Origin: an archaeon
Lineage (GTDB): Archaea > Iainarchaeota > Iainarchaeia > Iainarchaeales > 1-14-0-10-31-34
Reading direction: 5' to 3'
Assembly: GCA_043815885.1 (NCBI GenBank)
Contig: JBDRIL010000029.1
Span: 3,249 to 67,248, forward strand
Length of the DNA stretch: 64,000 nt
Below the pieces are notes generated by a model. It was not told the origin of the DNA. It did not search any database and saw nothing but the letters and a program-made list of their open reading frames with translations. The translations under genes and the position numbers were made by a program. Of this stretch, positions 4,883 to 47,214 are shown in pieces; the first letter of the stretch is position 1; each line of letters opens with the position of its first letter.

Positions 4883-6100
4883 TTATTTTTTTGGCTTCAT
4901 TACGATTAAAGTGTAGTTTTTTTCTTTCAGGAAGTTCTTTGCTGTTTCTTGTACTTGTTTTGAGGTAACGGAATGAATTCTTTTAAGGAAGTCTTTTGTG
5001 TACTTTACCTTGTTTCTCTTGTAATTAATCAGGTTTAAGGCTAAATCAAAATTGTTTTCTTCTGTGAGAAGCAGTTTTCCTTCAATGTATTGTTTTGCTT
5101 TATTCAATTCTTCTTTGGTTAGTTTTTTTTCTCTTAAGGCCTTTATTTCTTTTTCAATTAATTCCTTTACTAAAGGAATCTTTTCTTTTCTTGCCCCAAC
5201 ATACACGGCAAAGTAACCGAAGTAATTTCCTGCCTCTAAATGTGATTGTACTGCATAAGCAAGACCTCTCTTCTCCCTTATCTCCTGCATCAGCCTGCTA
5301 CTTAACCCACCCCCTAAATGAGCATTAATTACTTCCATTATATAGTGTTCTTTTTTAGTGGAAGGAGTGACCTGAAAACCATAAATTAAATGCGCCTGGC
5401 TTAATTCCCTTTTAATTAATTTGTTTCTTTCAGTTATTTTTTCTTTCCTGAATTCCTTTACATCTCTTGGTTTCTTTTTTTTCGTGGAAAATGATTCCTC
5501 AATTTTTTTCTTTACTTTCAATGGATTAATGTTTCCTACAACTGAAACAATTATGTTTGAAGGAGTGTAAAATTCATTAAAGTAATCAATGATGTTCTTT
5601 CTGCTGATTCCTTTCACTGTTTTCTTTGTTCCAATAATGCTCTTCATTTTATTGTCCTTAAAGCAGAGCTGCTGGAATAAATCAAAGAGGTAATTCGGAA
5701 CATTGTCCTTTATCTGGCTTATCTCTCTTAGAACAATCTTTTTCTCTAATTTAAGGTTTTTTTCCTTGAACAGGGAATTATTCAGGCAGTCCTGCAATAC
5801 GTCCAGTCCTTTACCAAAGTGCTTGTCCTGGACTTCAACAAAGAAACAAGTCATTTCATTGGAGGTGAATGCATTAATCTTTCCTCCAATTTTGTCAATC
5901 TCTTCAGCCAGTTCTTTCTTGTTTCTTTTCTTGGTTCCAGTGAAAGCCATGTGTTCAATTAAGTGAGCTATTCCTGAATGTTTTGTTTTCTCAAAAATTG
6001 AACCAAAATTAATTGAAATAAGGATTGCAACAGAATTACTGTCTTTTCTTTCCTTTACAAGCAGATTCAATCCATTACTCAAAACGAATTCTTTGATCAT
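4883..6100 (-). CDS. M16-family zinc metallopeptidase (insulinase-like)
   Basis: Inverted zinc-binding motif HLIEH (GIAHLIEHMAFTGT); two-domain M16 architecture; 405 aa. Confidence 0.8.
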   Translation of the reverse strand: MIKEFVLSNGLNLLVKERKDSNSVAILISINFGSIFEKTKHSGIAHLIEHMAFTGTKKRNKKELAEEIDKIGGKINAFTSNEMTCFFVEVQDKHFGKGLDVLQDCLNNSLFKEKNLKLEKKIVLREISQIKDNVPNYLFDLFQQLCFKDNKMKSIIGTKKTVKGISRKNIIDYFNEFYTPSNIIVSVVGNINPLKVKKKIEESFSTKKKKPRDVKEFRKEKITERNKLIKRELSQAHLIYGFQVTPSTKKEHYIMEVINAHLGGGLSSRLMQEIREKRGLAYAVQSHLEAGNYFGYFAVYVGARKEKIPLVKELIEKEIKALREKKLTKEELNKAKQYIEGKLLLTEENNFDLALNLINYKRNKVKYTKDFLKRIHSVTSKQVQETAKNFLKEKNYTLIVMKPKK

Positions 6101-19989: not shown

Positions 19990-20565
19990 TTAGGGCAACC
20001 AAGAATTATTTTTCCTGTAAAAAATTATTAAAGAAACAGCCAATAATACAATCAACAAAGATAAATGATTTGCTTCAGGAAAGCCTGGAGTTCTCTTCAC
20101 TGCATTAGTCCAGATGGTTTTTCTTGAATTATCATACAAATGCTCTTCTGTTATGCCTTCTGATTCATCCAAGTAAGCTTCAGCTACAACGTAATAATTT
20201 TCGATTTCATCCAACTCAAAAGTCAATACAGTCTTATCAAATACATGAGTTTTTTCTAATGTTGCTCCTGCTCCAATAAGTTCTGCATCAAAAGATTCTT
20301 CAAATTCCTCCCCGCCAATAGGAAAACCTTTTTTATCAGCAATATAGAAATTCACGTCAACCAATCTTTCAACCGCATCGTAATTCCTTATATATGCAGT
20401 CGCAGACAGAGACGAATCTGGGCCTCTGACAGACGGATCAACTACAACCTTCTTCACTGCAATAACATTGCCTGCAGGCGCATCGCTATTGACGAAACCA
20501 ATAACTGCAAATAAAATTAAAAATAAAATTATTATTTTTTTCATTTCTTTTCCTGCCAAGCTCAA
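19990..20565 (-). CDS. secreted protein with signal peptide and a PGF-CTERM-like C-terminal anchor
   Basis: N-terminal hydrophobic signal (IIILFLILFAVIGFVNS). The C-terminus is TPGFPEANHLSLLIVLLAVSLIIFYRKNN, a PGF tripeptide then a TM helix then basic residues. Confidence 0.5.
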   Translation of the reverse strand: MSLAGKEMKKIIILFLILFAVIGFVNSDAPAGNVIAVKKVVVDPSVRGPDSSLSATAYIRNYDAVERLVDVNFYIADKKGFPIGGEEFEESFDAELIGAGATLEKTHVFDKTVLTFELDEIENYYVVAEAYLDESEGITEEHLYDNSRKTIWTNAVKRTPGFPEANHLSLLIVLLAVSLIIFYRKNNSWLP

Positions 20566-21524: not shown

Positions 21525-24311
21525 ATGATTAAGATTTCAAAGCTGAGGTTAAAGAATTTCAAGTCATTTACTAAAGCAACAATCCCTTTTTCAAGGGGCT
21601 TTACAGCTATTGCCGGAAGCAATGGGTCAGGGAAATCCAATATCCTTGACGCATTAATGTTTGTATTGGGGATTACCTCCCTCAAAATGCTTCGGGCATC
21701 AAAACTCACTGATTTAGTCAATCATTACAGCAAGGACAGCTATGCATTAGTGGAAATGGATTTAGCTGGAGAAGACAAGAATTACGTTATCTCCAGGGAA
21801 GTGGACAGAGAGGGAAAGAGCGTATTCAGGATGGAGGGAAAGAGAAGCAGTCTGGGAGAAATCACTTCACTCTTGAAGGAATTAGGAATTAAGGCAGACG
21901 GATACAATATCGTGGTCCAGGGAGACGTTACAAGAATCATTGAAATGAATGCCGTTCAGAGAAGGGAAATCATTGATGAATTAGCTGGAATAAGGGAATT
22001 CGATGAAAAAAAAGAGGAAGCAATAAAGGAATTAGACAAAGTGGACAGAAAGATAAGAGAGGTAATGATTGTATTAAAGGAAAGAGAAACCTACCTGAAT
22101 GAATTGCAGAGGGAAAGGGAAGCAGCATTAGAGTACCAGAACCTGAGCGGAGAGTTAAAGAAAACCAAAGCAACAATCGTGGAAAAAGAAATCGGGAAAA
22201 TAAAAAAAGAAATAAATGAATTCAACCAAAAAAAAGAGAAACTGAATGCTGAAAGGAATTCCATTGAAAAAAAATTATCCGAAATGAAATCAAGGGAAGA
22301 GGAAACCAGGAAAAAAGTAGAGGAACTGAATGAAAAGATTCTTTCAGCAAACCAGAAAACCTATGCAGGAATAGGGATTGATTTAGAGGAAGTTAAATCA
22401 GACAAGAGACTGGCAGAAGAGAAGATTAATTCAAAGAAAGAGCACATCAACGTAATGAGCAACAGGATAAATTCACTGAATGAAAAGAAAGAAGTAATCA
22501 GGGAAAAAGAAAAAGAATCAAAGAAGAGACTGCAGGAATTAAGGGAAGAAAAAAAGGAAGCAGAGAAATCACTTGAAGAAACAGAGAAGTCCGCCGGAAT
22601 AAAAGCAAATTTCACTGAATTAAGGGCATCCCTAAACAGGGCAGAAAAGGGGCTGGATGAATGCCTGAATGAATTAAATGAAGGAAAGGAATCCTTCTAC
22701 CAGAGGAAATCTGAAATAGGCTCCTTGGCAAAAGAAATCGGGAATGCAGAAAAAATCCTGGAAGAATTAAAGGAAAACAAGGCAGCAAAGGAATTAAAGG
22801 AAAAAAGCGAAAAAATAAAGAAAGCAATAAAGAAAATGAATGAAGTCGAAGAAGAAATAAAAAAACTGAATAAAAAAATCAATTCAAAGGAACTGAATGA
22901 AAGAATCAAGGAATTAAGGCAGGCAAGGGAAAGAATACTGAAAGAAATGAGCGAAGTAATTGATCTGGCAAGAGAGGCCGGAGGAATGAGAAAAGAGGAA
23001 ACAGTGGAGGCAGAGAAAAAGAAAAGCCAAAAGGAATTAAAGAAATCAGAAGAAGCAAGGGAAGCATTGAACAATACGATTAAGAAACTAGAGAAAGAAA
23101 AAGGGAAACTGGAAGAAGAAACAAAGAAATTAAGGAATGTATTGATGGAGGAAAACGAGGCAATAGAGGGACTGAATGAATTAAGGAACAAATTAAAGGA
23201 AATTTCCTTGAATGAGGATTCAATTGAGAATTCATTGAAAGATAAAAAGAATTCAGTAAGTGAAATAGAGAAAGAAATAGAGGAATCAATGAAGGAAGTT
23301 GATTCACTGGAAGAAGGAATAAAGAAGGAAGAAAAAAGAACTGAGGAATTAAACAAAAGAATAAGGGAACTGAATATTGAACTGGAAAAACAAAGCCAGG
23401 AAAGCAAGCATTTTTATGAAGACAAGGAAAGAGAACAAAAGAGCCTTGAATCAATAAATGAAAGAATAACAATATATGAAGAAAAAATAGGTAAACTGGG
23501 AAAGGAAGAAAATGTGCTGGAAATAGAGAACTCAAAGAACGAAGTAAGGATAACTGACTTGGAAGAAGAGAAAAAGGAGTTTGAAGGAATTGAATTATTG
23601 GAAGGAGTTGAATTAGCTGAATTAAAGCAATCCCTTCCTGAAATAGAGAAAAACATAACCAAGCTTGGAGCAATAAACATGAAGGCAATTGATTCCTTTA
23701 ATGTGTTTGCCGAAGAATTACTTGAAATAAAGAATAAGGCAGAGAAATTAGAGCAGGAAAGGATTGCAGTGCTTGAAATGATTGACAAGATTGAAGTAAA
23801 AAGAATCAATGTCTTTAATGAATGCTTTAATCAAATAAATTCAAACTTCAATAAAATGTATTTCTCCCTGGCTGAAGGAGAGGGAAAGCTGAAGTTAAGT
23901 GATGAAAATAATCCATTGGATTCAGGATTGCTTATTGAAGCAAGGCATGTAGCAGAAAAAGTGAAGGGAATTGATTCCATGAGCGGGGGAGAAAAAAGTT
24001 TAACTGCATTAGCCTTTTTGTTTGCAATCCAGCTCTACCAGCCTGCCCCGTTTTATTTCTTTGATGAATCCGATGCAGCACTGGATAAACCGAATTCAAT
24101 AAAGATGGCCAGAATGATTAAAGAAATATGCAGGAAAAACCAGTTTATCGCCATTACTCACAATGACACACTCATAAAGGAATCCGACCAAATAATTGGT
24201 GTAGCCTTAAACGAACAAAAAAGCTCGGTAATAGGATTAAAGCTAAAGGAAGAAATAGAAAAAGAATTAAAAGAAACAAAAACAGAAGAAATAAAGGAAA
24301 CAATAAATTAA
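21525..24311 (+). CDS. SMC-family ABC-type ATPase with long coiled-coil, apparently lacking a hinge domain
   Basis: N-terminal Walker A (AGSNGSGKSNILDALMFVLG). SMC-typical VVQGDVTRIIEMNAVQRREIIDELAGI. C-terminal signature MSGGEKSLTALAFLFAI and Walker B FYFFDESDAALD. 928 aa. The middle is continuous K/E heptad coiled-coil with no Gly-rich hinge and no CxxC zinc hook. Confidence 0.75.
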   Translation: MIKISKLRLKNFKSFTKATIPFSRGFTAIAGSNGSGKSNILDALMFVLGITSLKMLRASKLTDLVNHYSKDSYALVEMDLAGEDKNYVISREVDREGKSVFRMEGKRSSLGEITSLLKELGIKADGYNIVVQGDVTRIIEMNAVQRREIIDELAGIREFDEKKEEAIKELDKVDRKIREVMIVLKERETYLNELQREREAALEYQNLSGELKKTKATIVEKEIGKIKKEINEFNQKKEKLNAERNSIEKKLSEMKSREEETRKKVEELNEKILSANQKTYAGIGIDLEEVKSDKRLAEEKINSKKEHINVMSNRINSLNEKKEVIREKEKESKKRLQELREEKKEAEKSLEETEKSAGIKANFTELRASLNRAEKGLDECLNELNEGKESFYQRKSEIGSLAKEIGNAEKILEELKENKAAKELKEKSEKIKKAIKKMNEVEEEIKKLNKKINSKELNERIKELRQARERILKEMSEVIDLAREAGGMRKEETVEAEKKKSQKELKKSEEAREALNNTIKKLEKEKGKLEEETKKLRNVLMEENEAIEGLNELRNKLKEISLNEDSIENSLKDKKNSVSEIEKEIEESMKEVDSLEEGIKKEEKRTEELNKRIRELNIELEKQSQESKHFYEDKEREQKSLESINERITIYEEKIGKLGKEENVLEIENSKNEVRITDLEEEKKEFEGIELLEGVELAELKQSLPEIEKNITKLGAINMKAIDSFNVFAEELLEIKNKAEKLEQERIAVLEMIDKIEVKRINVFNECFNQINSNFNKMYFSLAEGEGKLKLSDENNPLDSGLLIEARHVAEKVKGIDSMSGGEKSLTALAFLFAIQLYQPAPFYFFDESDAALDKPNSIKMARMIKEICRKNQFIAITHNDTLIKESDQIIGVALNEQKSSVIGLKLKEEIEKELKETKTEEIKETIN

Positions 24312-24312
24312 T

Positions 24313-26694
24313 TTATTTCTTTTTGCTTGGTTTTTTCTTTTTTACTTTTTCTATTTGTTTTTCTTCCTTGATTAGACTGATTATTTCGTCTGCTGAAGGG
24401 ATTTTTTCGTCTTTTAATTCCTTTTCCGCCTGTTCGGCCCGCTTCTTTAGCTTGAATTCATCTAATTTGTATTTATCCAGTGCCTTTTTGTAGTCTTCTC
24501 CTGTAATCAACTTTTTTTCCTTCAGTATTTTTAGGTCTCTCAGTGATTTTTCCCTTGCTGAAAATTCCACTCTCAATCTATCGATTTCAATTGCATGCTT
24601 GGACCTGAAACTTATTTCTTTATTCAGTACATCCATTTGTTTCTTGTATCTTGCCATGAGTTCATCGTGCTTTTCTTCGCTTATCTTTCCATCTGAAAAA
24701 GCAGTATCAATCCTTCTCTGCAATGACATCAATCTGTGCAGTTGCCCTTCCAGGGAATACTTCTTCTTTGAATAAACTCTTGTAAGAATGACTGCTTCCA
24801 TCATTACAATGAATAAAAGGATAACGAACAGGGAAATGACTCTTGCAAACGCCTGCTGGTCAAAGGCTTCAGTGAACTGGTATTTCTTTTCTAATTGAGG
24901 AAGGCCTCCCTCAGTAACATAGTCTTCCGGAGAGAATTGCTCATAATAAATGTAAATCTCTTTAGAGACACTGAAAAGGTTTTCTGCCAAGAGAACGAGA
25001 TTAAAACCGCTCTTGGCTTGTTCTATTGCCTTGCTTCCATAGCCTTCATTGTAATAGAATTCAGAGGAATTATAGTAGTATTTTGCATGGTCCAAATAAA
25101 GCCTGCCCCAGACAAACTTTCTTATTCCCTTTTTTTCTTTCTCCATTTCCCCTTCCAGATAATCAATTTTTTCCTTTAGCATTGAATGTATTTCACTGAA
25201 GTCCTTGTCCTTTAATTTAATATAGGAATCAATTAAAGCAAAGGAAGAAGCTGAATCAAATGCAGTGGCTAAATACCATCCCATTTCCTGTTCTTTTTTT
25301 GCTGCATTAAGCCTTCTCTCTGCATCCCCTAATTCGTCTCCTTCAGCTATACTTAACCCGTTTTCAGAATTAACAATGTAATTGCTTGAGAAGTCCTTGA
25401 ATGCGTCATCCTTCCTTACCTTTGCATTACTTTCAGTGGTTCTTGCATGGAATTCCCTTGATGCCTCAAACCATGCAACAGCAAATTCATATTCCTGAAT
25501 TTTTTTTATTGTTTCAGCTTCACTTATTTCTCCAGTGGTTACATCAACAACTAAAGTCTTTTCTCCGGTTATTTCATCTATGTTATTCATTGCCCATGCA
25601 AGCCTCTGCTGGGCCGCGATATGCCATTCAATTAAATCAATTGGAACAGTCATGTCAAGATTGGTTTTAAGGCCCTGGATATTCTTTCTCAAGTCATTTA
25701 CTTTCAGCTTGAATACCTCTGAATCAGATTGAAGCAATGAAGGATTATCTGCAATATCCTTTACCATTGAAGCATAAACCTTTGCAATAAATGCATTGTT
25801 TGCTGCAGAATACAGGTAATTGTTTTCAAACATTGCCTCTGTTTCCTGAAGGCTTTGTTCTGCCAGATTAAGTGTTGAAAGAAGGAATGAGATTTCAGCC
25901 TGGTCTTCTATTGCAGTGGTTTCCATTGACTTTCTTGCTTGCTCTATTTTTACCTTGGTTTCCTCTATAATGTTCGCAGTTATTTCATGCATTGGCCTTA
26001 GCTCTTCCACAAAGGCTGTTGGTTCCGGAGAGAATTGTTTTTCTGGAACTGCCCCTTTATTAATGTCAATCTCCTCCCAATCAGAAAACGCGATTTCCAG
26101 TACCTCATCAATTGAATCAACTTCAACCACCTTTATCCCCCATTCCTCAAAAGCGTGGTCAATCAGGTTAATGTTTTTCACTGAACCTTCTTCCCTGATG
26201 ATTTGCTTTGCCTCCCCTTTTGGAATCATGAATAAGGTTATTCCTTCCTCTGAAGCCTTTCTTGTTTTCTGGAAGACGCCTCCAACACTTCCCACTCTGG
26301 CGGCCTCTGTAACAGTTCCAGTAATGGATACCTCGCCGCTTAAAGGCAAGTCCTTGAGCATTGAAATCGTAAGCAATGCCATTGCTGCTCCAGCACTGGG
26401 GCCTTCAACAGCAGAAGCACTTGAATCAATATCAAATAAGTAATCATATTTATCCACTCCATCAAAGTAATTCTTTGAAACCCTTACTGCAGTCTTTTCA
26501 GCACTCTGGGTAGTGGTTCCAACCAATGGAGTTAAATTACTCCAAATCTCTCCAGTGCCGGGAATAATATTCAAATACAAATCAGCTACAACAGGATTTC
26601 CATCAGAGGTAATTGCAAAAATCTTCATATGCCCTTTAGGAAGAACCGCGAAAGCATTCACTGAAAACAGTAAAAGCAAAAACCAGTAAAACAA
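24313..26694 (-). CDS. secreted, membrane-anchored S16 (Lon-type) peptidase-domain protein with a cytoplasmic SHOCT-like coiled-coil tail
   Basis: Signal peptide (MFYWFLLLLFSVNAFA). Lon proteolytic domain motifs (EGPSAGAAMALLTISML...GGVFQKTRKA) with no AAA+ Walker motifs. One TM helix (FARVISLFVILLFIVMMEAVILT). C-terminal GKISEEKHDELMARY and LITGEDYKKALDKY SHOCT-like motifs. Confidence 0.65.
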   Translation of the reverse strand: MFYWFLLLLFSVNAFAVLPKGHMKIFAITSDGNPVVADLYLNIIPGTGEIWSNLTPLVGTTTQSAEKTAVRVSKNYFDGVDKYDYLFDIDSSASAVEGPSAGAAMALLTISMLKDLPLSGEVSITGTVTEAARVGSVGGVFQKTRKASEEGITLFMIPKGEAKQIIREEGSVKNINLIDHAFEEWGIKVVEVDSIDEVLEIAFSDWEEIDINKGAVPEKQFSPEPTAFVEELRPMHEITANIIEETKVKIEQARKSMETTAIEDQAEISFLLSTLNLAEQSLQETEAMFENNYLYSAANNAFIAKVYASMVKDIADNPSLLQSDSEVFKLKVNDLRKNIQGLKTNLDMTVPIDLIEWHIAAQQRLAWAMNNIDEITGEKTLVVDVTTGEISEAETIKKIQEYEFAVAWFEASREFHARTTESNAKVRKDDAFKDFSSNYIVNSENGLSIAEGDELGDAERRLNAAKKEQEMGWYLATAFDSASSFALIDSYIKLKDKDFSEIHSMLKEKIDYLEGEMEKEKKGIRKFVWGRLYLDHAKYYYNSSEFYYNEGYGSKAIEQAKSGFNLVLLAENLFSVSKEIYIYYEQFSPEDYVTEGGLPQLEKKYQFTEAFDQQAFARVISLFVILLFIVMMEAVILTRVYSKKKYSLEGQLHRLMSLQRRIDTAFSDGKISEEKHDELMARYKKQMDVLNKEISFRSKHAIEIDRLRVEFSAREKSLRDLKILKEKKLITGEDYKKALDKYKLDEFKLKKRAEQAEKELKDEKIPSADEIISLIKEEKQIEKVKKKKPSKKK

Positions 26695-26883
26695 ATAATT
26701 TCTTCAAAACACTACACCATTCAACAAACAATCCAATTACTATTAATAAATAAAAAGGAATTTAAATAGTTAATGGATTCCAAGTCCCCTGTTTTCGAGT
26801 TAAATTTATTAATTAGAAAAAGCCCTTAACATTCATTCAGTGGAAGCTAAAACAAAAAAGAAAGAAAAAGAAAAAGAGGGCTT

Positions 26884-27218: not shown

Positions 27219-28502
27219 TTATTTCTTCTCCTTTTTTTTGGTTTCTTTCTTTTCTACTGGTTTCTCTTCTTTCTTGGGTTTCTTTTTTGCTTCTTCTTTT
27301 TTTCCAGTCTTTTTTTCTTCCATCTTTGGTTTCTCTTCTTTCTCTTTTTCTTCCTTTGGTTCCTCTTCTTTTGCGCCACTGCTTTTTCTAAAAGCGGTGT
27401 CTTCTTTCTTTGGTTTTTCCTTTGCTTCTTTTTCTTCAACTTTAGGTTTTTCTTTTATTTCTTTTTTCTCCTCGCCTTTCTTCTCTTCTGGCTTCTCCTC
27501 TTTTTTTGGGTCTTCCTCGGGTTTCTTTTCTTCTTTTGCGCCACTGCTTTTTTCAAAAGCGGTGTCTTCCTTTTTCTCTTCTTTAGAGTCTTCTTTCTTT
27601 TCTTCAGCTTTCTCTTCTTTGGCTTCCTTTTTTTCCTCTTTAGATTCTTTTGTTGCTTCGGGTTCCTTCACCATTGATTTCAGTGAATCTGCCTGAAGGT
27701 TTGCCTTTCCGAGAAGATTGCTGATTGTTTCCTTGTTGAAGATTTCTGCATCCAATGCAACACTAAGGGAATCCCTGTATGCCTTGGACAAAAACAGCTT
27801 TATTGTGTCTTCATTAGTGTAATAAATATTTAAAGCCAGATTGAGTGAATTCCTGTAGGCTTGCTGGAAGTCACTGAACAGCTCGTCTATATCAATGTCC
27901 ATTACTTCTGCCTTGAATATCTCTCCCTTTTCATATACTGCAATTACATTTAATCCAACCTTTATTGGCTTAATATTCAGTTTCTGGAGAGTGCCTGAAA
28001 CAACCTTTGAGATTTCTTCTCCTTTCCTGCATACAGTCTTGTCTTCTGAAATAAAGATTGAGCTTCCCTGAATCCTTACCTTTAATCCTGCTCCCTTTAA
28101 GTCACTTAGTGCAGGGCCTGGAGGCAAACCAGTATCTCCTGCAGGAACAAGGATATCATCAGGGGCAATTATTCCGGGTTTTGCTGAAACCCTTCCTTTA
28201 TTCTTTTTAATTAAAGCATAGAGTTCAAATGGATTCATTTGAGTGAAGATTATTGCAACTGAGCCTTTAACTTCTTCAAGCAATTTGCTTTCCTTTAGCT
28301 TTGATTCCTTTAATGCATTTAGTATTACTCTGGTTTTGGAAACCTTTATTACTGCTTTATCATGCAATAACTTCCTTATGTCCTGGAAGAGGTTGGCTGG
28401 AAATCCAGTAATATCAGCTACAGCAATAACCGGATAACTCTCAATTAACTGTTTTAATTCAGTTACTTCCTTTTTCTTCCATTCAGTTGTATGACGGGTC
28501 AT
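27219..28502 (-). CDS. rplP0: ribosomal stalk protein aP0 (uL10) with an expanded K/E-rich C-terminal tail
   Basis: uL10 N-domain (VIAVADITGFPANLFQDIRKLL). The tail of ~150 aa is K/E repeats carrying two copies of EDTAF(E/R)KSSGAKEE and ends KKEKK rather than GLGALFG. Confidence 0.85.
   Translation of the reverse strand: MTRHTTEWKKKEVTELKQLIESYPVIAVADITGFPANLFQDIRKLLHDKAVIKVSKTRVILNALKESKLKESKLLEEVKGSVAIIFTQMNPFELYALIKKNKGRVSAKPGIIAPDDILVPAGDTGLPPGPALSDLKGAGLKVRIQGSSIFISEDKTVCRKGEEISKVVSGTLQKLNIKPIKVGLNVIAVYEKGEIFKAEVMDIDIDELFSDFQQAYRNSLNLALNIYYTNEDTIKLFLSKAYRDSLSVALDAEIFNKETISNLLGKANLQADSLKSMVKEPEATKESKEEKKEAKEEKAEEKKEDSKEEKKEDTAFEKSSGAKEEKKPEEDPKKEEKPEEKKGEEKKEIKEKPKVEEKEAKEKPKKEDTAFRKSSGAKEEEPKEEKEKEEKPKMEEKKTGKKEEAKKKPKKEEKPVEKKETKKKEKK
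27369..27404. repeat. 36-nt hairpin repeat copy in the P0 tail (encodes DTAFRKSSGAK)
   Basis: TTTTGCGCCACTGCTTTTTCTAAAAGCGGTGTCTTC; 35/36 identical to 27534-27570 and 10103-10138. Confidence 0.8.
27534..27570. repeat. 36-nt hairpin repeat copy in the P0 tail (encodes DTAFEKSSGAK)
   Basis: TTTTGCGCCACTGCTTTTTTCAAAAGCGGTGTCTTCC. Confidence 0.8.
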
Positions 28503-45591: not shown

Positions 45592-47214
45592 GTGGGGGCA
45601 GGGAAAATGAAGGAGGAAAAAGGGACTGGTTCTGCATTAACGCTTAGAGCTCTCTTATTTGGAGCATTTCTTTCAATCATTGTTGCAAGCTATTCTGCCT
45701 ATGCAGGATTAAAGATTGGGGGGGTTTACTGGCCGATAGTCACTACCTCCCTTATTTCAATGGTTTTCTTTCTCTTTCTTGGAAAAACAAATGTAAATGA
45801 AATTAATGTTGCCCAGACAGCTGGAAGCGCTGGAGGACTGCTTGCAGCAGGAATCATCTTCACTATCCCGGCAATATGGATGTTGGGATTGGAGATAACT
45901 TTATTGGAAATATTCCTGATTTCATTGATTGGAGGAATTACCGGAATAATTTTTTCTATCCCTCTCAGAAAAAAAATGATTGAGGAAGACAAGCTTCCTT
46001 ATGCTGACGGAACCGCGGCAGCAGCACTGATTAAAGCAGGGGATGAGGGAGGAAAGAAAGCAAGAATTTTATTCTATGCATTTGGAATAGGGGCAGTTTT
46101 TTCTTTTATCAGGGATTTCCTGCAATGGATTCCTGCAGCAATTAATCTGGATATGATGAAAGCAGGAATAGCAAAAATATTTTCTTTTGGTTCAAGTGTT
46201 TCACTGATTCCTTTTGCAGGGGGATTCTTGATTGGGCCAAGGTTCACTGCTGCATGGTTTCTTGGAGCGATAATAACTTACTTCGTAATAATTCCTTATT
46301 ATGTTTCCACTGGATTGATTGCAGAAAAGTTTGCAGTACTGGCTGAAATTGCAAGGCCTTTGGGGGTGGGAATAGTTATTGGTTCAGCAATAATGTATTT
46401 CATTATCAAGGGAATTCCTTCCCTGAAGAAGCTGTTTTCAAGCTGGAAAGACGCAAAAACAGGAAAGCTTTCAGGAATTGCATTGATTTTCGCGGTTGGG
46501 ATCCTTACAATAATCACTAACATGAATCTTCCATTGGCGATTATTGCAATTGTCGGCGCATTCCTGATGGCCTTTGTTGGAGCTAGAGTAACTGGAGAAA
46601 TGAATGTCGATCCAATGGAGATATTTGCAATGATTGTACTGCTTATTGCAAAGATATTCTTTGGATTCAATGCAATCTATCTGGTAATGGTTGCAGCAGT
46701 GGTATGCATTGCAGCAGGAGTAGCAGGAGACCTGATGCAGGACCTAAAGACAGGATTCATTCTTAAAACAAAACCAGAACACCAGGTTATCGCACAACTT
46801 GTAGGAATAATTACTGCTTCCTGCGTAATCGGAATAGTTTTATTCGCAATAAAACCCTACGGTTTTGGAGGATTGGAATTTCCCGCGCCACAGGCAATAG
46901 CAGTAAGCGAAGTTTTGGGCCCTGCTTTCTTAAGCTTTCCTTTATTGGTTGGAGTGTTGTTGGGGATAATTGCTACACTCATTACTTCTTTGATTCTGAA
47001 AATGGGAATTATTCCAATTGCTTTTGGAATCGGATTGTATGTACCGATTGAATTGTCTCTTCCTTTATTCATTGGAGGAATGATTAGGCTGGTTGCTGAC
47101 AGGAAAAAAATAACTGAAAAGGCAAGGTTAGTTGCAGCAGGAGTGATTAGCGGAGAAGCATTAATCGGGGTAATAATTGCGATTGCCGGGCTTGTTGGGG
47201 GAATGCTTGCGTGA
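45592..47214 (+). CDS. OPT-family oligopeptide transporter
   Basis: 540 aa, about 16 TM helices, OPT-like N-terminus (GSALTLRALLFGAFLSIIVASYSAYAGLKIGG). Confidence 0.65.
   Translation: MGAGKMKEEKGTGSALTLRALLFGAFLSIIVASYSAYAGLKIGGVYWPIVTTSLISMVFFLFLGKTNVNEINVAQTAGSAGGLLAAGIIFTIPAIWMLGLEITLLEIFLISLIGGITGIIFSIPLRKKMIEEDKLPYADGTAAAALIKAGDEGGKKARILFYAFGIGAVFSFIRDFLQWIPAAINLDMMKAGIAKIFSFGSSVSLIPFAGGFLIGPRFTAAWFLGAIITYFVIIPYYVSTGLIAEKFAVLAEIARPLGVGIVIGSAIMYFIIKGIPSLKKLFSSWKDAKTGKLSGIALIFAVGILTIITNMNLPLAIIAIVGAFLMAFVGARVTGEMNVDPMEIFAMIVLLIAKIFFGFNAIYLVMVAAVVCIAAGVAGDLMQDLKTGFILKTKPEHQVIAQLVGIITASCVIGIVLFAIKPYGFGGLEFPAPQAIAVSEVLGPAFLSFPLLVGVLLGIIATLITSLILKMGIIPIAFGIGLYVPIELSLPLFIGGMIRLVADRKKITEKARLVAAGVISGEALIGVIIAIAGLVGGMLA

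Follow-up and report, generated by a model that had tools for sequence, protein, structure and literature searches.

The closest described system to the protein reported here is YlbL (DdcP)/SepM of Firmicutes, whose S16 domain stands alone, has a Ser-Lys dyad and lacks an ATPase. It is tethered to the membrane by an N-terminal transmembrane (TM) anchor, carries a PDZ domain and has its protease outside the cell. YlbL has been described as a transmembrane protein with Lon and PDZ domains and no AAA+ domain that 'likely resides extracellularly' (PMC6051672). Both Ser and Lys are required in vivo, where the target is the small membrane protein YneA, and YlbL purified without its TM domain had no in vitro activity (PMC6051672), so an intact dyad is no guarantee that activity can be easily shown. 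Two further groups are relevant. Archaeal LonB (M. jannaschii 1xhk, A. fulgidus 1z0e and T. onnurineus 3k1j) combines an AAA+ module, into which TM helices are inserted, with a protease on the cytoplasmic side, while LonC (MtaLonC/TTC1975) is cytoplasmic and its protease is preceded by a degenerate AAA-like domain. The ATP-independent MtaLonC degraded only unfolded or unstructured substrates (PMC3391209). The motif around the catalytic Ser has the consensus [E/D]GDSA[S/T] in LonB and PKDGPSA in LonA (PMC2605481). S16 proteases and extracytoplasmic Lon domains are thus already known, and the family we describe here is best described as an architectural variant of ATPase-less extracytoplasmic Lon proteases, one that is peculiar to DPANN archaea and whose partner domain we find nowhere else.

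We analyzed a stretch of 64,000 nucleotides from a contig of the Iainarchaeota (hereafter the window). The gene, which opens with TTG, had no longer open reading frame (ORF) at the same place, and the window around it had a GC content of 35-39%. Its product consists of five parts, namely a Sec-type signal peptide, a Lon domain, a 12-helix domain, one TM helix and a basic tail predicted to be helical (Table 1). The immediate neighbors are archaeal housekeeping genes. On its upstream side, and in the same orientation, are the genes for ribosomal proteins L1, P0 and P1, and a 928-aa SMC-like gene is convergent with the ORF, their two stop codons being one base apart; a gene for a GPDPase_memb-like membrane protein lies on the far side of the SMC-like gene. 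Elsewhere in the window we observed an OPT oligopeptide transporter (45592..47214) and an M16 peptidase (4883..6100).

Table 1. Features of the Lon-domain gene and its product, with positions in the window and residues of the window's in-frame ORF.
Feature	Residues	Position	Strand	Basis
Whole ORF, 793 aa plus stop codon; S16-family, predicted type-I membrane-anchored Lon-domain protein		24313..26694	(-)	
Family's canonical TTG start (MKKLFVLL...), out of frame here		26705..26707	(-)	in frame in relatives L006/L007/L008
T5 homopolymer shifting the frame near the N-terminus		26678..26682	(-)	T4 in three related contigs
Predicted signal peptide as read in the window (MFYWFLLLLFSVNAFA then VLPK)	1-16	26647..26694	(-)	hydrophobicity and family statistics
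Lon (S16) proteolytic domain	~20-205	26080..26637	(-)	
Catalytic Ser100 codon (in VEGPSAG)	100	26395..26397	(-)	invariant 60/60; aligned to Lon domains
Catalytic Lys143 codon (in VGGVFQK)	143	26266..26268	(-)	invariant 60/60; aligned to Lon domains
Linker, non-helical; conserved F221-x-P223 motif, Pro invariant	206-229	26008..26079	(-)	
Family-specific 12-helix ectodomain (predicted)	230-585	24940..26007	(-)	AF2 model
TM helix (hydrophobic core 619-641)	613-641	24772..24858	(-)	
Predicted cytoplasmic tail; helical, basic, poly-Lys end	642-793	24316..24771	(-)	
SHOCT-like motif 1 (LMSLQRRIDTAFSDGKISEEKHDELMARYKK)	~655-685	24640..24732	(-)	tail alignment
SHOCT-like motif 2 (LRDLKILKEKKLITGEDYKKALDKY)	718-742	24469..24543	(-)	

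An earlier note on this DNA, made from the letters and their translations, had proposed an S16 proteolytic domain lacking an AAA+ module, and both parts of that proposal were borne out. Lon_C (PF05362) was the one significant Pfam domain in the product (E=2e-12, 47.6 bits against a cut-off of 21.1) and was matched in all 60 homologs, while searches with Pfam and NCBIfam models gave no AAA+ module in the ORF product. The best NCBIfam models were archaeal LonB and other Lon families, which covered the protease part only and scored far under their cut-offs. All PDB sequence matches at E<=1 (46) were Lon or Lon-like protease chains, with the M. jannaschii LonB protease domain (1xhk) as the best match at E=2.9e-8. 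The catalytic residues, whose presence had been left to be checked by alignment, were both found: the GPSAG at residues 98-102 supplies the Ser, and the Lys in GGVFQK falls at the position of the catalytic Lys in solved Lon domains. Gly98, Pro99, Ala101, Gly102, Thr125 and Gly126 were also invariant in the 60 homologs, and the Ser and Lys of the dyad were present as well in a distant, short-tailed branch. The domain has the Lon protease-domain fold, and the protein is a member of peptidase family S16 by sequence, fold and dyad. Since neither catalytic residue is missing or varies, we predict a Ser-Lys peptidase and not, as far as sequence can tell, a pseudoprotease. Pairwise identity across the family was 57% in the Lon domain, 40% in the helical domain and 25% in the tail.

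Hydrophobic segments were limited to two in the protein (residues 1-19 and ~613-641), in keeping with the signal peptide and single TM helix claimed before. Across 60 homologs the N-terminus followed the pattern M-(K/R)-K, then a hydrophobic core, then A-x-A followed by V; the -1 position was Ala in 59 of the 60, the -3 position held a small residue in 59 of the 60, and K/R was found within the first 8 residues in 53 of the 60. From this pattern we infer that the signal peptide is cut after AxA. Position 23, Met in the query, was Met in only 34 of the 60 homologs, so Met23 is not the family's start codon. A 90% identical homolog, P0001, has a gene call that opens at the Met23 equivalent, and we regard this call as truncated; the contigs that carry it have an upstream TTG-MRKLFILLFLILLFSGNAFA in frame, and their differences from relatives are conservative at the protein level.

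In the window itself the ORF that is in frame starts with MFYWFLLLLFSVNAFA and lacks the basic n-region usual in the family, while the N-terminus of its relatives reads TTG-MKKLFVLLVLLLLFSGNAFA then VLPK; one of the three related contigs encodes a protein 100% identical over its covered part. The hydrophobic core and the AFA/V cleavage motif are retained in the window despite the frame shift. The extra T within 26678-26682 may be an assembly error or may be genuine, and the N-terminal frameshift, if real, could lower export.

The tail beyond the TM helix contained more K/R than D/E in every one of the 60 homologs, and N-glycosylation sequons (N-x-S/T) occurred at 0.91 per 100 aa in the ectodomain versus 0.25 in the tail. 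Because the (-3,-1) rule, the charge distribution and the sequon bias all agree on an outside placement of the Lon and helical domains, we predict a type-I topology in which these two domains are outside the cell and the tail is in the cytoplasm. The extracytoplasmic placement given in the earlier note is therefore also the predicted one here, with the signal peptide, the single later TM helix, the basic tail and the sequon bias in agreement.

The 'long extracellular region' noted previously is present and predicted to lie outside, but what had been overlooked is that it forms a well-folded and conserved domain exclusive to the family. When modelled alone with 19 sequences (AF2), this helical domain reached a pLDDT of 89.9 and a pTM of 0.88, and it contains nine polar or aromatic residues that never vary (S296, N299, F302, R364, W408, R460, R461, W529 and H536). 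It matched no Pfam family, had no relative among PDB sequences and gave no whole-domain match in a fold search; judged from the model, it is unrelated to AAA+. Internal repeats were considered and rejected, as hhalign comparisons between four blocks of the domain gave probabilities all below 6%. A profile of the helical domain searched against 1.84 billion cluster representatives recovered 274 proteins (clusters), and in full-length profile matches the domain begins at about residue 210. Lon_C was N-terminal in each of 10 distant helical-domain matches and stood ahead of the helical domain in 80 of 80 genomic loci. With Lon_C N-terminal in all of the matches checked, the helical domain is known only as the partner of a Lon head.

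The tail, with 43 K/R against 30 D/E in the query, carries two motifs that had earlier been called SHOCT-like, and this claim was only partly upheld. Both share with SHOCT (PF09851) the pattern L..L..L...G.I(S/T)..E(Y/F)..K, and both were conserved in position in a 10-sequence tail alignment, with G669, I671 and L718 invariant. PF09851 matched at E<=0.01 in 8 of the 60 homologs, at the first motif, with a best homolog score of 25.4 bits under a gathering cut-off of 27 bits; none of the family members examined reached the gathering score. For the second motif, three of eight homolog peptides matched SHOCT at E-values of 2e-4 to 9e-3, and others gave weak matches to SHOCT_2 or DUF1707. One homolog carries the NCBI name 'SHOCT domain-containing protein'. 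The query's whole tail and both of its motifs gave no match to Pfam SHOCT even at E<=10, and we rejected a SHOCT domain in the query itself; what stands is a weak, sub-threshold resemblance at the level of the family. SHOCT is in any case a domain without established function (PMC3581485). A CdvA-like coiled coil (PF18822) in the tail was also considered and rejected, with no significant match to the model or to a CdvA sequence. The distant branch keeps the signal peptide, Lon domain, helical domain and TM helix and has only a short, basic tail, from which we conclude that the tail is accessory. At least one Aenigmarchaeota MAG belongs to this shorter-tailed branch.

A first homolog search returned about 135 clusters, nearly all of them 750-890 aa long with 35-49% identity; those with names belong to Diapherotrites, Micrarchaeota or unclassified archaeal MAGs. 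Databases label the family generically as an S16 protease, and homologs with names were called 'S16 family serine protease' or 'hypothetical protein'. In a scan of one genome per species, the family was found in at least 112 GTDB species, most of them labelled Candidatus Iainarchaeum or Iainarchaeota (Diapherotrites), with Ca. Iainarchaeum andersonii and the complete AR10 genome among them. A few family-bearing genomes were labelled bacterial or Thaumarchaeota, and these labels are probably binning errors. We found no description of this S16/helical-domain family in the literature on DPANN or Diapherotrites.

The surroundings of the gene were largely conserved. The L1-P0-P1 genes were upstream in 47 of the 60 loci having enough sequence, and the SMC gene was convergent and downstream in 48 of 68 loci. 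The gene was inverted between the same neighbors in about 8 loci, and unrelated genes were sometimes inserted. Given these inversions, we interpret the synteny as a conserved chromosomal region and not as an operon. No operon partner was found; although its position between rpl12 and SMC is retained, the orientation of the gene is not always the same. Each of the loci examined contained one gene without a nearby paralog. The small-celled Iainarchaeota carry it phylum-wide as a core gene, inherited vertically and kept in synteny, a status that had also gone unremarked in the earlier note.

We propose, with a probability of roughly 0.6, that the protein is a surface-located, ATP-independent peptidase acting on unfolded, extended or small polypeptides in an envelope housekeeping role. 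The Lon head at the outer face of the membrane would cleave such polypeptides without ATP, and they are the most likely substrates because the protein has no unfoldase and there is no ATP outside the cell. Candidate substrates would include surface proteins that are damaged or unassembled, secreted or surface proteins still in precursor form, and environmental peptides. The helical domain may take over the job of the AAA+ ring or the PDZ domain, that is, substrate selection, gating or oligomer scaffolding, and the variable tail may serve as an accessory element for oligomerization or partner binding. Because the gene is a syntenic, vertically inherited core gene, we favor envelope housekeeping, in which surface proteins would be matured or subjected to quality control.

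The same chemistry could serve a different biological role, and it is in this role only that the next explanation differs from the preferred one. The protein would then be a nutrient-scavenging exoprotease, its surface Lon head degrading environmental or host proteins and peptides as a supply for a DPANN cell dependent on amino acids. DPANN archaea have reduced genomes, the protease is predicted to be surface-exposed, and the window contains both the OPT oligopeptide transporter and the M16 peptidase, all of which would suit such a role. However, scavenging proteases are typically subtilases or metalloproteases, the protease here is membrane-tethered and not released, there is one gene per examined locus without a nearby paralog, and the neighborhood is one of housekeeping genes and not of adjoining transporters. 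Moreover, Lon without an unfoldase was restricted to unfolded substrates in the studied case (PMC3391209). We therefore consider scavenging unlikely as the main role.

A more elaborate arrangement, which we regard as doubtful and offer as speculation, would have six Lon heads forming a ring outside the membrane, with the 12-helix domains as a gated, ATP-independent antechamber and six TM helices leading to a cytoplasmic SHOCT-like coiled coil, so that proteolysis would be regulated across the membrane. A cytoplasmic state or partner would then control proteolysis at the surface, or the reverse. If true, Iainarchaeota and related DPANN archaea would have an envelope protease of their own, of a new design, that is self-compartmentalizing and regulated across the membrane.

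Very unlikely, in our estimate, is cis-acting or single-turnover processing like that of birnavirus VP4, in which the Lon domain would cut its own chain, for example at the F221-x-P223 linker, and so free or activate the helical ectodomain as the real functional unit. It is more improbable still that the protein is a non-catalytic surface or structural pseudoprotease, with the Lon fold acting merely as an oligomerization ring as in RadA/Sms or ComM: the dyad is typically lost in non-catalytic Lon-like domains, whereas Ser100, Lys143, Thr125 and the whole GPSAG are invariant here in 60 of 60 homologs, with the dyad kept in the distant branch. We give hardly any credence to a cytoplasmic Lon domain, arising from a start at Met23 or from an N-terminal hydrophobic stretch that acts as an uncleaved anchor with inverted topology, for although the gene caller began P0001 at the equivalent Met and the extra T leaves the window's N-terminus without a basic n-region, the P0001 contigs have the upstream TTG in frame with conservative protein-level differences, Met occupies position 23 in just 34 of 60 homologs, K/R followed by the hydrophobic core and AxA was found in 53 of 60, and the tail after the TM helix is net basic in all.

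The preferred reading, a surface peptidase with an envelope housekeeping role, bears on a subject where little is established, namely archaeal protein quality control beyond the cytoplasmic membrane, for which the family is a conserved, single-gene and phylum-wide candidate. DPANN archaea rely on the cell surface for interaction with hosts and nutrients. The finding extends known biology of S16 proteases and extracytoplasmic Lon domains, and does not introduce a new principle. The helical ectodomain, which is confidently predicted and has no Pfam or PDB relative, is for that reason a good target for structural and functional work. The bacterial precedent limits the surprise, but the unfamiliar ectodomain and the phylum-wide conservation make the family as a whole a worthwhile target. 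Accordingly, the description of a stand-alone extracytoplasmic Lon domain as 'uncommon' in the earlier note was fair, with the qualification that YlbL is a characterized bacterial precedent (PMC6051672).

Compared with the known Lon-type proteins, the Iainarchaeota protein is not a LonA, LonB or LonC, because the AAA+ or AAA-like module is absent. It differs from LonB in having no AAA+ module and a protease predicted to be outside, and its Ser motif, EGPSAG, combines elements of the consensus in LonB with those in LonA. Unlike in LonC, its extra domain is C-terminal to the protease, all-helical and unrelated to AAA+. By analogy the protein most likely works most like YlbL/SepM, with which it shares the stand-alone S16 domain, the Ser-Lys dyad, the lack of an ATPase, the membrane tether and a protease outside the cell, the last of these being predicted here. 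It nevertheless lies outside the SepM/YlbL family: the match to the NCBIfam SepM model (NF041438) was weak (E=1.1e-6, 27.9 bits) and far under the cut-off of 200, no PDZ domain was matched by Pfam in the query or its homologs, and the anchor is at the opposite end. In place of the N-terminal anchor and PDZ domain, the protein opens with a cleavable-type signal peptide and has a helical domain of 356 aa behind the protease; its TM anchor is C-terminal and is followed by a long tail predicted to be cytoplasmic. It comes from archaea (DPANN) and not from Firmicutes. The family would thus represent a third way to use a Lon head without its ATPase, beside the PDZ-linked YlbL/SepM and the AAA-like LonC.

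The 5' end of the S16 gene was affected by a one-base difference in a homopolymer at 26678-26682 (minus strand), where the window carries T5 while three related contigs carry T4. Because of the additional T, the canonical TTG-MKK start of the family (26705-26707, minus strand) is out of frame in the window. The T5 run lies within the signal-peptide region and reflects either a natural frameshift or an error in the assembly. For P0001, a homolog 90% identical to the S16 protein of the window, the public gene call was truncated N-terminally. In contig JAHISD010000158 (locus L006, otherwise near-identical), 58 nt that include a palindrome (TTGTATACCGAAGGTATACAA) were inserted at approximately positions 700-760, in the promoter region that separates the S16 gene from rpl12 (the counterpart of window 26750-26760).

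Five loci carrying the archaeal S16 gene (L026, L028, L035, L043, L077) were on contigs filed as bacterial or Thaumarchaeota MAGs, with names including Chloroflexi, Falkowbacteria and Patescibacteria. Archaeal L1-P0-P1 genes adjoined the S16 gene in three of these (L026, L035, L043), and the labels on all five are probably binning errors. Within the window, P0 (L10) measured 427 aa, compared to 266-296 aa in relatives. The additional length of roughly 130-160 aa is a C-terminal extension rich in K and E, within which a segment 'EDTAF(E/R)KSSGAKEE' occurs as a near-duplicate.

Coordinates of window features discussed in the text
Feature	Position	Strand
M16 (insulinase-type) peptidase	4883-6100	-
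HerA/DUF87-type ATPase, 1393 aa	6107-10288	-
191-aa protein, N-terminal signal peptide	19990-20565	-
SMC-like gene	21525-24311	+
Ribosomal protein P0 (L10)	27219-28502	-
Anaerobic ribonucleotide reductase (NrdD), 1293 aa	31204-35085	+
OPT-family oligopeptide transporter	45592-47214	+

The 191-aa protein had no match in a Pfam search; its C-terminus ('...TPGFPEANHLSLLIVLLAVSLIIFYRK') resembles the PGF-CTERM type of archaeosortase sorting signal. The presence of both an OPT transporter and an M16 peptidase in the same window is relevant to a possible peptide-scavenging lifestyle. Inteins with a LAGLIDADG domain were observed in two window genes, the first splitting NrdD, where the domain is an endonuclease domain and the N-terminus of the host protein comprises NrdR-like zinc ribbon and ATP-cone domains, and the second splitting the HerA/DUF87-type ATPase.

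The SMC-like gene is convergent with the S16 gene, and their stops were 1-2 bases apart in the window (24311-24313) and in two distant relatives (L001 and L003), so that terminators would have no space between the two genes. The SMC-like protein has a length of only 928 aa in the window and its close relatives; more distantly related versions measure 983-1002 aa. Canonical SMC proteins are approximately 1170 aa, and the SMC-like protein is therefore shorter than the canonical form.
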